A DNA stretch of 64,000 nucleotides from Octopus vulgaris (GCA_951406725.2 OX597842.1:19282001-19346000); one strand, 5' to 3'. Numbered from the stretch's first letter, positions 28,926 to 54,734 are shown. Made by a program: numbers and translations. The notes: a model not told the origin generated them from the sequence alone.

Positions 28926-29009
28926 ATGGATGTGAAGAAGATTATAAGCAACATTGTGGATGGGGACTTTAAAGATGTCGAACGACTTATCAAAGAAAAT
29001 CCTGGAACA
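28926..29009 (+). CDS. ANK-RING-Death coding exon 1 (MDVKKIISNIVDGDFKDVERLIKENPGT)
   Basis: AG at 28922-28923, ATG at 28926, donor GTAAGT; resembles an ankyrin N-cap. Confidence 0.75.
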
Positions 29010-53000: not shown

Positions 53001-54734
53001 TCCTGTCTCACGAATGAACCTCTTTTAAACTGAATAGTGACTGGTTACGAGAAATGGGTTCTCTATAAATATGTCAAGTAGCGAAGACAGTGGGTAAGGA
53101 AAGGAAATATGAAAGGTTTAGTCCTCTTTGAACTTTTAAGCCCCAACCAAATGAAAACAAAGGAGATCTACTGCAAGCAGCTTGAGTGGCTTAAGTCAGC
53201 ACTAGAAGCAAAGCGACCATCTTCAGTTTCAAGACGAAAGGTGTTCTTCCATCAGGATAATGCTCGGCCACAATCAGCGAGGATGACATTCCAAAGGCTG
53301 GAGCAGTTTGAATCGGACATTCACAGGACATTGCCCCATCTGATTATCATTTATTCCACAGTCTTCAAACTTATTTGGACGTAAAAAATATGTTACCTGT
53401 AGATGAGGTCAGAACGGTAGTAGAGAAGTATTTTTCGTCACGGACAAGTCAATTTTGGAAGAGGGGCCTTGCAAGTGCACCAGATAGATGGAAGAGCATT
53501 GTAGAAAATTAAAGAGAGTATATTTTAGGTTAAAAAAGAACTTTGTTTATCTTAATTTTGAAGAATAAAAGATGTATAAAACAAATGCATTATTATTTAT
53601 AGGATGACCCAATGCTTTGTGTAGTTGAGATCATTCTGGTATCTTGTCTCTTTGTATTTGAATTGGCCCAGATATGCCTAATAGTACTGGTATTGTCTGA
53701 TAGTTCAAACCATATCTTCTAGATATTTCTAACTCTTGATATGCTTTAGTTATCAATTATTCAGAAGAGGAGAAGCATCACAGACAACTATTTCAGGCAT
53801 TGACCATGGAATGTTATCAAATGGCCAAAATGGGATTCCTTTGAAGGGTCTCTGGGGTAATGATACTAAATAGGATGTATAGTCCAGAGATCTGGGAATC
53901 TCTCCAGGTTGAGCCAGTTCCTCTCCACATCTCTGGTACTATGGACATGTGTTGCAGGAACAAATGACAAGACAGATTCTTCAAGCCAAACCAATGGAGC
54001 AGGGGTCCTAGGGGTAGATCACGAACTAAATGGTTGGGTGATAGCCATTGTCTTAGCTGTTTATGTTTGGGAACCCAACCAAAATCTCTAATGATGGCTG
54101 CTTCTGATAGGACCCTATGGAGGAGATGCCTGAAGACTCTGTCTTTACAATCCTCCCAAGAATATTGAGCAGAGACAATGGATGGGTGGATCAAATGGAT
54201 TGACTGTTGATGGTCTATATTCATTCTTTAGGTTCTTCATACACTTTTGCCTACACAAACACTTCTCCTACCATCTGTTTACCATAAATTTTCAATGAAT
54301 TTTCTTTAAAATCTTCACCATTTTCATCCTGTATTTCCACCTCTTCGTTATTATTTAATTAACATTCTTAGAAACAGAGAACAACATCTTTTATTTATTT
54401 TTTTATGATTCATAACTATTTCTCATTGACATAATTTATTTGTTACATTTATGACAAACTACAGTACACATCTTTTATGTAATCGTTAATGATTTTGAAA
54501 TTATTTCTTTTTGTTTTATGTTTTGCAGGCAGGAATTTAGGAATCAGAAATGTCCAACTGGGGAATATCAGGTATGACTATCCTCATAACACTAAAGAGC
54601 AGAGCTTCCAGATGCTGCACACATGGTACACAAGTTGTGATCCAGAGATGCGAACACTCAAAACACTCAGAAAAGCTCTTGAGGAAGCTGAATGCTTTGA
54701 GGCACTTCAATGTCTACCATCAGAAGAAAAGTGA
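28926..54734 (+). CDS. Ankyrin-repeat / RING (MIB-like) / Death-domain protein, 13 coding exons, ~658 aa; putative E3 ubiquitin ligase
   Basis: join(28926-29009,30641-30792,34824-34980,35850-36412,40111-40147,43210-43422,45488-45663,46640-46782,47632-47682,47798-47848,48271-48342,51526-51597,54529-54734); all introns GT-AG, phases consistent, 1977 nt open frame. Confidence 0.85.
29170..29600 (-). mobile_element. Old LINE RT relic
   Basis: VALDVGKTFNCVWQ...HSINSGMP resembles the RT motifs ALDxxKAFDxVWH and INSGVPQ. Confidence 0.55.
30641..30792 (+). CDS. Coding exon 2, ankyrin repeats
   Basis: Polypyrimidine tract + CAG; KTFLMAACEQG...GANMDMSDKEGLTALHYAVK; donor GTAAGA. Confidence 0.9.
31735..32640. 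mobile_element. Long-TIR MITE interrupted by SINE A (31815-32212, minus strand)
   Basis: GTGCAATAGGTGTGAAACAACATGTAGTAAACGAATAC vs GTATTCGTTTACTACATGTTATTTTACACCTATTGCAC; inverted match resumes after the SINE. Confidence 0.7.
32755..33130 (-). mobile_element. tRNA-derived SINE (family B head with family C-like tail)
   Basis: Minus-strand head GGAGGCGCAATGGCCCAGTGGTTAGGGC; tail similar to 9980-10150. Confidence 0.8.
33953..34661. mobile_element. MITE with ~150-bp imperfect TIRs
   Basis: CCCCCGACGAATTT / AAATTCGTCGGGGG and GAAGATTCCAATTATATTGGAATTT / AAATTCCAATATAATTGGAATCTTC. Confidence 0.75.
34824..34980 (+). CDS. Coding exon 3, ankyrin repeats
   Basis: GANVNKQDSDSDTPLHLAVRK; TTTCAG acceptor, GTTAG donor; phase 2 to 0. 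Confidence 0.9.
35850..36412 (+). CDS. Coding exon 4, five tandem 102-bp ankyrin units
   Basis: TPLHLAxxxGHTDTAKLLLQQNG x5; TTTTAG acceptor, GTAAGT donor. Confidence 0.95.
37195..37742 (+). mobile_element. Deleted mariner-like element
   Basis: TA-CGAGGGGGTACCCA...TGGGTCCCCACCTCT-TA ends; QLASIKFCFLLEKTAAETVVMLQTVYED transposase N-terminus. Confidence 0.75.
38205..39378 (-). mobile_element. Composite Helitron (copy of 20555-21733), intronic
   Basis: Near-identical reverse complement (ORFs 38613 and 39027 mirror 21090 and 20397). Confidence 0.8.
39809..39894 (+). ncRNA. Type I hammerhead ribozyme motif (intronic, sense)
   Basis: GGT-CTGAAGA(39813-39819)-GTAGCCTGTGG...CCACCTGCTTT-GAAA(39879-39882)-CATATG-TA-GCC; stem II has mismatches. 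Confidence 0.6.
40111..40147 (+). CDS. Coding exon 5 (37-nt micro-exon, QHYGVVSLMLAQ)
   Basis: TTTCAG acceptor, GTTAGT donor; bridges phase 2 to phase 0 and completes an ankyrin helix. Confidence 0.8.
40458..40725 (+). mobile_element. tRNA-derived SINE with (AAT)n and a hammerhead-like tail
   Basis: TGGCATAGTGG A-box, GAGTTCAGTTCC B-box; GGCTG...CAGCC-GAAAC at 40640-40664. Confidence 0.7.
41430..41830 (-). mobile_element. RTE LINE AP-endonuclease fragment
   Basis: LRVSTLNVGTLKGRSGEIV...VDLCCIQE; GVGGMSILL; AYDPQSG. Confidence 0.85.
42291..42544 (-). mobile_element. Candidate short solo LTR
   Basis: TGT...ACA termini with 4-bp flanking duplication TGTA; the left flank lies in a microsatellite. 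Confidence 0.45.
42555..42830 (-). mobile_element. SINE family A (diverged)
   Basis: Same core as 735-1140. Confidence 0.75.
43210..43422 (+). CDS. Coding exon 6, ankyrin repeats
   Basis: MTPLLEAVSR...HGANINAVDNDGNNCLHL; donor GTAAGT. Confidence 0.9.
44230..44440 (-). mobile_element. RTE RT fragment
   Basis: LEVVDSYCHLGNQVSSGGGCAKSIAARIR. Confidence 0.7.
45488..45663 (+). CDS. Coding exon 7, last ankyrin repeat / linker
   Basis: YLASQGANLYHRNDEKVTPLD; TTGCAG acceptor, GTAAGT donor. Confidence 0.88.
46640..46782 (+). CDS. Coding exon 8, C3HC4 RING finger
   Basis: CRWC...HPCQHTVICQNC...CPICR; CACAG acceptor, GTAAG donor. Confidence 0.92.
47632..47682 (+). CDS. 51-nt symmetric micro-exon (VCPKFEEEATQAVAESV)
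   Basis: ATTTCAG acceptor, GTGAGT donor, phase 1-1, open frame. Confidence 0.7.
47798..47848 (+). CDS. 51-nt symmetric micro-exon (ECPRCREKTVKMVVESF)
   Basis: ATTTCAG acceptor, GTGAGT donor, phase 1-1. Confidence 0.65.
48271..48342 (+). CDS. 72-nt symmetric micro-exon (ESLNLDENRSHSTSKKVEVKQQQV)
   Basis: ATTTCAG acceptor, GTGAGT donor, phase 1-1. Confidence 0.65.
49800..50990 (+). mobile_element. Degenerate non-LTR RT, RLE-type (R2/NeSL/Hero-like)
   Basis: KSAPGGDGV, QFRPFSILNVDGKIYMG, DLVDAYGSVPH; many stops; clade assignment tentative. Confidence 0.7.
51526..51597 (+). CDS. 72-nt exon, Death domain N-terminal part (ETPKLEEKCLQDVAKLLGVNWQQV)
   Basis: LxxVAxxLGxxWxxxG Death-fold motif; ATTTCAG acceptor, GTGAGT donor. 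Confidence 0.85.
52790..53613 (+). mobile_element. Deleted mariner element
   Basis: VTGYEKWVLY, VFFHQDNARP, IAPSDYHLF motifs; TIR GGATGACCCAAT at 53602-53613. Confidence 0.85.
53700..54230 (+). mobile_element. RTE-like LINE 3' relic
   Basis: LHISGTMDMCCRN...GPRGRSRTKWL in mixed frames. Confidence 0.5.
54529..54734 (+). CDS. Terminal exon, Death domain C-terminal part
   Basis: GRNLGI...IRYDYPHNTKEQSFQMLHTW...TLKTLRKALEE; TTGCAG acceptor; TGA at 54732-54734. Confidence 0.9.

Follow-up and report, generated by a model that had tools for sequence, protein, structure and literature searches.

At least 85 ankyrin-RING-Death genes derived from MIB2 in Octopus vulgaris, a possible family of variable intracellular sensor-adaptors

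We examined a window of 64,000 nucleotides from Octopus vulgaris (GCA_951406725.2 OX597842.1:19282001-19346000, contig C29; positions are those of the window unless a contig is named) that carries, at 28926..54734, a gene for a protein combining ankyrin repeats, a RING and a C-terminal Death domain. Shared introns show this gene to be the C-terminal half of the Mind bomb gene MIB2, from the ankyrin array to RING1, in which, from a phase-1 intron onwards, Death exons have taken the place of the last RING exon. The gene is spliced and belongs to a large family in which one exon varies in repeat number, with amino-acid change focused on the predicted binding face. We put at about even the chance that it is one of at least 85 MIB2-derived variable intracellular sensor-adaptors, whose ankyrin repeats would bind a target and whose Death domain would recruit partners; such a family would probably serve in immunity.

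Gene structure and splicing

An earlier sequence-only reading had proposed a phase-consistent frame of 13 exons, and this stands: assembled by coordinates, the exons give 1977 nucleotides and 658 amino acids with a single terminal stop, and all 12 introns are GT-AG and phase-consistent. Pfam, run on single exons, matched ankyrin in exons 2, 3, 4 and 6, zf-C3HC4_3 in exon 8 (42.8 bits, cut-off 27) and Death in exon 13 alone (24 bits, cut-off 22.6), in agreement with the C3HC4 RING and Death domain originally proposed, and the suggested 10-11 ankyrin repeats also fit. P0003, a near-identical protein of O. sinensis, scores 38 bits over its entire Death domain. That reading had missed the division of the Death domain between exons 12 and 13, the nature of linker exons 9-11, which repeat exon 12 and its flanking intron in tandem and in degenerate form (69-87% identity), the family size and the variable face. 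The features are as follows.

28926..29009, + strand: exon 1, coding part, with start Met and N-capping ankyrin repeat; 3' boundary as in MIB2
30641..30792, + strand: exon 2, ankyrin (Pfam, contigs); phases 0 and 2 as in MIB2
34824..34980, + strand: exon 3, ankyrin (Pfam; MIB2 comparison)
35850..36412, + strand: exon 4, five 102-bp (34-amino-acid) ankyrin repeats whose frame is nearly fixed and whose predicted binding-face positions vary
40111..40147, + strand: exon 5, short, finishing a repeat (gene model; present in P0003)
43210..43422, + strand: exon 6, MIB2-type ankyrin, 46% identical to octopus MIB2
45488..45663, + strand: exon 7, MIB2-type last ankyrin repeat or cap, 50% identical and equal in length to that of MIB2
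46640..46782, + strand: exon 8, C3HC4 RING homologous to MIB2 RING1, with eight zinc ligands and a Pro-Ile-Cys-Arg end
47632..47682, + strand: exon 9, 51-nucleotide phase-1 linker, a degenerate exon 12 copy
47798..47848, + strand: exon 10, 51-nucleotide phase-1 linker, a duplicate of exon 9
48271..48342, + strand: exon 11, 72-nucleotide phase-1 linker, a degenerate exon 12 copy
51526..51597, + strand: exon 12, first part of the Death domain
54529..54734, + strand: exon 13, remaining Death domain and stop (Pfam, contigs)
20090..20394, strand not assigned: stretch also present in both neighbouring paralogs, where it precedes exon 1; it may be a 5' untranslated exon or a promoter

Spliced contigs from public runs, four per comparison, support 8 of the 12 junctions, including each RING-to-Death joint, as the sequence-only reading had asked to see; among the contigs listed, none bridges RING to Death singly. 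The exon 1-2 junction appears in contigs of three of the four runs, while for exon 6-7 four runs give loose contig ends. GT-AG joints were found for exon 7-8 in all four runs, for 8-9 in one (with loose ends in the others), for 9-10 in three, for 10-11 in one, for 11-12 in three and for 12-13 in two. Likeness of the supporting contigs is mostly 95-99%, which leaves room for alleles or close paralogs among them; the run type was guessed by the tool, and no run is recorded as RNA or bears a tissue label. Junctions 2-3, 3-4, 4-5 and 5-6 occur in the NCBI model P0003. An intronless, stop-bearing retrocopy of a paralog (L099) holds exon 6, exon 7, a RING remnant, the linker and both Death exons contiguously.

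P0003 and the close relative P0011 share the same start Met. A further 5' exon is nonetheless likely, because an acceptor-like AG lies just upstream of the coding part of exon 1. The NCBI isoform models P0004 and P0016 skip exon 12, which truncates the Death domain. The AlphaFold model of P0011 has a mean predicted local distance difference test (pLDDT) score of 83.5, with the linker (473-518) disordered.

Origin from MIB2

The MIB-HERC2 domain (PF06701) has 10 matches in the genome and none on C29, in keeping with the contrast that the original reading drew with Mind bomb, which has this module. These domains mark two Mind bomb genes: MIB2, which lies on C26 and has two RINGs, and MIB1, which lies on C13 and has three. 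Of the two, MIB2 is the one that the window gene matches, in exons 6 and 7 at the identities given above. Seven of the window gene's first eight introns (1, 2, 3, 5, 6, 7 and 8) lie at MIB2 positions and phases; intron 4 keeps the MIB2 phase, at a position about four codons away. The exon-1 profile missed its MIB2 counterpart, which was located by reading frames. The gene begins at MIB2's first ankyrin repeat, and past the RING1 exon both genes have a phase-1 intron, after which MIB2 has one last exon (coiled coil and RING2) and the window gene has the phase-1 linker and Death exons.

Partial copies of MIB2 with no nearby Death match were observed at C26:0.75-1.32 Mb, C20:45.04 Mb, C27:36.36 Mb and C30:3.17 Mb. 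Four of the five such copies examined retain the last RING exon of MIB2, and they therefore represent an intermediate step of the origin.

The gene resembles MIB1 and MIB2 in having an ankyrin array that ends in MIB-type repeats, with RING1 after them. It differs from them in lacking the MIB-HERC2/ZZ (MZM) module and in the exchange of the coiled coil and catalytic C-terminal RING for Death exons; P0003 has no match to SH3_15 (REP), although the same model matches P0099. What it has gained is a Death domain, a linker that is spliced and a repeat exon that expands, and it is present in at least 85 copies, against one MIB2 and one MIB1. By its defining modules the gene is not a member of the Mind bomb family, yet it is derived from MIB2. 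The original idea of a lineage-restricted domain shuffle is supported, with Mind bomb as its source.

An origin from ankyrins 1-3 or ANKDD1 was rejected on the introns shared with MIB2. These proteins, together with DAPK and NF-kB p105/p100, combine ankyrin repeats with a C-terminal Death domain, and none of them is known to have a RING between the two. NCBI names such as ankyrin-3-like are misleading, because the ankyrin part comes from MIB2. Among the 60 matches listed from the PDB, the human MIB1 ankyrin domain (8v0e) gives the longest single matched stretch; exon 7 alone finds MIB1 at an uninformative E 0.11, and Foldseek with the whole model returns ankyrin proteins only.

The RING and the ligase question

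The window RING aligns to octopus MIB2 RING1 gaplessly (38.9 bits) and to RING2 with gaps (19.6 bits). By this comparison the RING kept is the non-terminal RING1, and the terminal RING, catalytic in mammals, is the one that was replaced. Ubiquitin transfer by human MIB1 is reported to depend only on its last RING and coiled coil, the MIB1 ANK-RING1-2 fragment is inactive with UbcH5B, does not ubiquitinate itself and is mostly monomeric, and MIB2 RING2 is the counterpart of MIB1 RING3 (10.1101/2024.03.01.582834). Mutation of MIB2 RING1 spares cFLIP ubiquitylation and mutation of RING2 abolishes it (PMC7815719).

All eight C3HC4 zinc ligands of the window RING are intact. At the positions of MIB1 RING3 that contact the ubiquitin-conjugating enzyme (E2), namely V965, M989, P993, I994 and R996 (10.1101/2024.03.01.582834), mapped by spacing and motif only, the window RING has Trp, Phe, Pro, Ile and Arg, and octopus MIB2 RING1 has Leu, Ile, Ile, Gln and Lys. 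The Pro-Ile-Cys-Arg end is common to 16 of the 17 loci of the window gene's clade. The RING has both the zinc ligands and, by motif only, the E2-contact residues and linchpin Arg of an active RING E3; such an Arg favours E3 activity, with variation among E3s (PMC12326332). Across 82 family RINGs, 58 have the eight standard ligands, 13 have the His replaced and 11 are broken or atypical; an intact His with a Pro-hydrophobic-Cys-Arg end is found in only 18, and 12 more have that end with Asp for His. The latter 12 loci include a subfamily (L131, L132, L140-L145 and L147-L149) in which Asp replaces the zinc-binding His. The tree of exon 7 and RING was a quick one of 104 columns and 92 rows, in which the window locus is absent and two neighbours with an identical RING are present.

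At the least, the RING has been retained as a structural module. The sequence-only reading had it as a ubiquitin ligase resembling the C-terminal half of Mind bomb; the resemblance stands, but the label of E3 ligase is doubtful because the RING kept is RING1, which is dispensable or inactive in mammalian MIB proteins. Judged on residues and motif, an active ligase RING in the window gene's subfamily is a fair-sized possibility that falls somewhat short of an even chance.

The Death domain and its adaptor relatives

The six-helix Death fold expected of a Death-domain adaptor is indicated by Pfam, AlphaFold and Foldseek. In P0011 pLDDT is about 85-94 across most of the domain, and Foldseek on a relative's model gives Death domains as its top rows (best E 3.4e-3, probability 1.00). 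Ankyrin Death domains lead the sequence and fold matches narrowly, and the ESM Atlas returns generic Death clusters at 0.88-0.90.

The Death domain is closest to that of kinase-less adaptors named RIPK1-like by NCBI (P0108, P0095, P0092 and, in Argonauta, P0146), in which it is divided between two exons at phase 1 in the same way. Their Death domains are about 45-50% identical to that of the window gene, and they differ from it in having a low-complexity N-terminus with neither ankyrin repeats nor a RING. Five clustered kinase-less adaptor genes, with a RHIM-like motif preceding Death, lie at C26:12.81-12.93 Mb (L159, L191-L195; P0108, P0146), and this cluster is a candidate octopod IMD/RIPK1-like adaptor. 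According to PMC9835746, an Imd adaptor had not been found in molluscs. Outside the octopods, a weak, word-based search for relatives of the adaptor gave nothing but the query itself. P0003 itself matches neither RHIM nor a kinase domain in Pfam. The O. bimaculoides protein P0101, an adhesion G-protein-coupled receptor (GPCR) with leucine-rich repeats (LRR, GPS, 7tm_2), also ends in a Death domain of this type.

The simplest reading, an inferred one because the trees differ in strength, is that the Death exons were captured from such an adaptor. A quick tree of 61 rows places the adaptors outside the family (Shimodaira-Hasegawa-like approximate likelihood-ratio test, SH-aLRT, 95). A careful 32-row tree gives no decision on direction. 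Pfam RHIM does not match the adaptors, a point against the proposed sensor-adaptor role. In the approximately unbiased (AU) test, the family as one clade excluding the GPCR-linked domains has p 0.245. A complex prediction of P0011 518-607 with adaptor P0108 200-300, run without alignments, scored 0.00 and is evidence neither way.

Family size and distribution

Searches of the same genome gave at least 143 matches to the Death exon, 133 to exon 7 and 150 to exon 6. Pairing took in 123 of the 133 exon-7 positions, weak or stop-ridden rows being excluded, and outside two retrocopy arrays a Death exon follows exon 7 at 85 of 106 loci, hence the at least 85 ankyrin-RING-Death loci (62 of the 85 on contigs C29 and C31); this is not a single-copy family. 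A RING-like exon lies between exon 7 and Death at 46 loci by direct search and at 34 of 38 further loci fetched and searched with a family profile. The reading of the RING as dispensable, raised by 39 loci that seemed to lack it, was dropped on this result. Outside the arrays, Death exons are open in 119 of 126 cases and contain stops in seven, and over all pairs dN/dS, the ratio of nonsynonymous to synonymous substitution rates, is 0.37 for Death, 0.44 for exon 7 and 0.47 for the RING.

All 16 matches of a Death-exon search and 23 of the 24 of a C-terminal search were named Octopus vulgaris, O. sinensis or O. bimaculoides, the three species in which the family is seen. Among 1.84 billion representative sequences there were 302 matches at E up to 0.001; of the best 150 of these, 30 were identified, comprising 25 from Octopus, one from Argonauta (the Death adaptor only), one from amphioxus (Death only) and three weak, unrelated ones. 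With 30 of the best 150 named, the family may also be present in other cephalopods.

No description of the family was found in the literature searched, which covered main texts, and genome-paper supplements could list it; the available parts of PMC9334734, PMC10970066 and PMC9835746 do not mention it. It is new to that literature, while its proteins are already in NCBI as automatic models under mixed names (for example ankyrin-3-like and MIB2-like).

Tandem arrays of intronless, stop-bearing family retrocopies were observed at C1:102.71-102.73 Mb and 216.93-216.96 Mb (L099), the second with a period of about 3.4-3.6 kb, and dozens of lone exon-6 copies lie in tandem at C9:9565800-9586200 with a period of about 262 bp.

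The variable ankyrin face

Exon 4 consists of tandem 102-bp repeats, 4 to 14 per gene in the seven genes measured. Among 33 distinct internal repeats from nine close genes, 19 of 30 codon positions are invariant in amino acid, and as many as eight residues occur at single positions of the turn and of the end of helix 1. Six positions were taken as corresponding to those randomised in designed ankyrin repeat proteins (DARPins). The available text of PMC8683736 describes randomised DARPin positions as a concept and does not list them. At the six positions the proportion of nonsynonymous differences (pN) is 0.337, against 0.048 at other sites and an overall synonymous proportion (pS) of 0.086; 334 of 593,775 six-site sets reach the face value, with a ratio of 3.9 (bootstrap 1.75-10.3). 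In a second clade, represented by 36 repeats, the trend is the same (0.459 versus 0.242). There are 20 turn and 17 helix cassettes in 27 combinations, and the four-gamete test fails at 134 of 190 site pairs; by these patterns the cassettes are shuffled between repeats.

Several points count against the sensor-adaptor reading of these patterns. The six positions were picked after the repeats had been viewed (a first run used five, and a sixth, invariant one was added later), pairwise counts are non-independent and can be inflated by recombination, and two of the seven measured exon-4 copies are frameshifted, their repeats being included in the test. In young copies pN/pS is 0.048/0.057 for the RING, 0.054/0.035 for exon 7 and 0.051/0.031 for Death, with a ratio of 0.8-0.9 in a second comparison, where binning by pN biases the bins. 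Because pN is near pS in these non-repeat exons, part of the amino-acid excess may come from relaxed selection. By a pairwise method and at DARPin-type positions, many paralogs nevertheless show excess amino-acid change at the predicted binding surface.

Other features of the window

A C2H2 zinc-finger array lies at 61149-62282 (+), with a stop between 62063 and 62067 (Pfam). Broken reverse-transcriptase pieces of a long interspersed nuclear element occupy 3417-5416 (-), and a mariner-type transposase fragment lies within intron 12 at 53082-53509 (+). A near-exact tandem duplication with a spacing of 2157 bp, at about 5959-10270, may be recent or an assembly artefact.

Proposed function and alternatives

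Expanded sensor-adaptors of invertebrates include NLR-type, TLR-type and TRIM-like families. Like such sensors and DARPins, the present proteins form a large clustered family with repeat-number variation, a variable face and a Death-fold effector; unlike NLR- and TLR-type sensors, they have no NACHT/NB-ARC, LRR or TIR, and their scaffold is that of Mind bomb. By these features the family is a variant of the expanded, variable sensor-adaptor kind. In the mechanism that we favour, the variable ankyrin face would bind foreign or stress-related proteins, target binding would cluster the protein, and the clustered Death domains would engage a RIPK1-like adaptor or FADD and so feed into NF-kB or caspase pathways; ubiquitination would be optional, and clustering of the Death domains would then make up for the lost coiled coil. 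The size of the family and its variable face are the strongest points for a sensor role. A bolder form, which we hold to be rather unlikely, would make the family some 85-100 natural DARPin-like intracellular receptors with shuffled cassettes and a captured Death domain leading to an IMD/RIPK1-like pathway, one subfamily having re-armed RING1 so that clustering would switch on ubiquitination.

Human MIB2 uses its MZM module to bind oligomeric RIPK1, which it ubiquitylates (PMC5912950), and also acts on cFLIP (PMC7815719). The window gene could instead encode a re-targeted ubiquitin ligase, in which Death would take the place of MIB-HERC2/ZZ in docking on Death complexes and the RING would ubiquitinate these or an ankyrin-bound target, damping or tuning cell death as human MIB2 does for RIPK1. 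The eight zinc ligands, the five E2-contact positions, the clade-wide Pro-Ile-Cys-Arg end (16 of 17 loci) and the activity-raising Arg linchpin (PMC12326332) speak for this, but only 18 of the 82 RINGs combine an intact His with the Pro-hydrophobic-Cys-Arg end, and a ligase role alone leaves the variable face unexplained; we put its chance at about a quarter. That most family RINGs lack the full E2 motif would suit a role as decoys or brakes, in which a catalytically dead half of MIB2 occupies Death adaptors or MIB2 partners and blocks signalling, as would the Death-truncating isoforms P0004 and P0016 and the derivation from a part of Mind bomb that Notch activity does not require and whose RING1-2 is weakly autoinhibitory (10.1101/2024.03.01.582834). 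A decoy would not, however, need dozens of copies with differing faces, and forced expression of fly ANK-RING alone gave no phenotype (cited in 10.1101/2024.03.01.582834); we consider decoys improbable.

We attach a similarly small chance to a largely neutral expansion, in which segmental duplication and unequal crossing-over within repeat-rich regions multiplied a chimera of minor function and the variable sites are merely tolerant surface. Near-equal pN and pS in young copies, the frameshifted copies, the retrocopy arrays and the tandem lone exon-6 array are all consistent with it, whereas a face pN about four times pS, rather than equal to it, the family-wide dN/dS of 0.37-0.47, the 119 of 126 open Death exons, the presence in three Octopus species and the splicing are not what neutrality would lead one to expect.

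Significance

Cephalopods are not known to have antibodies, and little is understood of the sensors inside their cells. The present family is large, spliced and diversifying, and databases list it under scattered names such as ankyrin-3-like and MIB2-like; it offers a concrete candidate for a repertoire. A single genome preserves the steps of its origin, from MIB2 through Death-less partial copies to Death capture and repeat expansion. The family also isolates the Mind bomb ankyrin-RING1 module, which has a conserved concave face to which no part in Notch signalling has been assigned. Its natural RING1 variants, some of which have the E2 motif and others not, bear on what makes a Mind bomb RING active.

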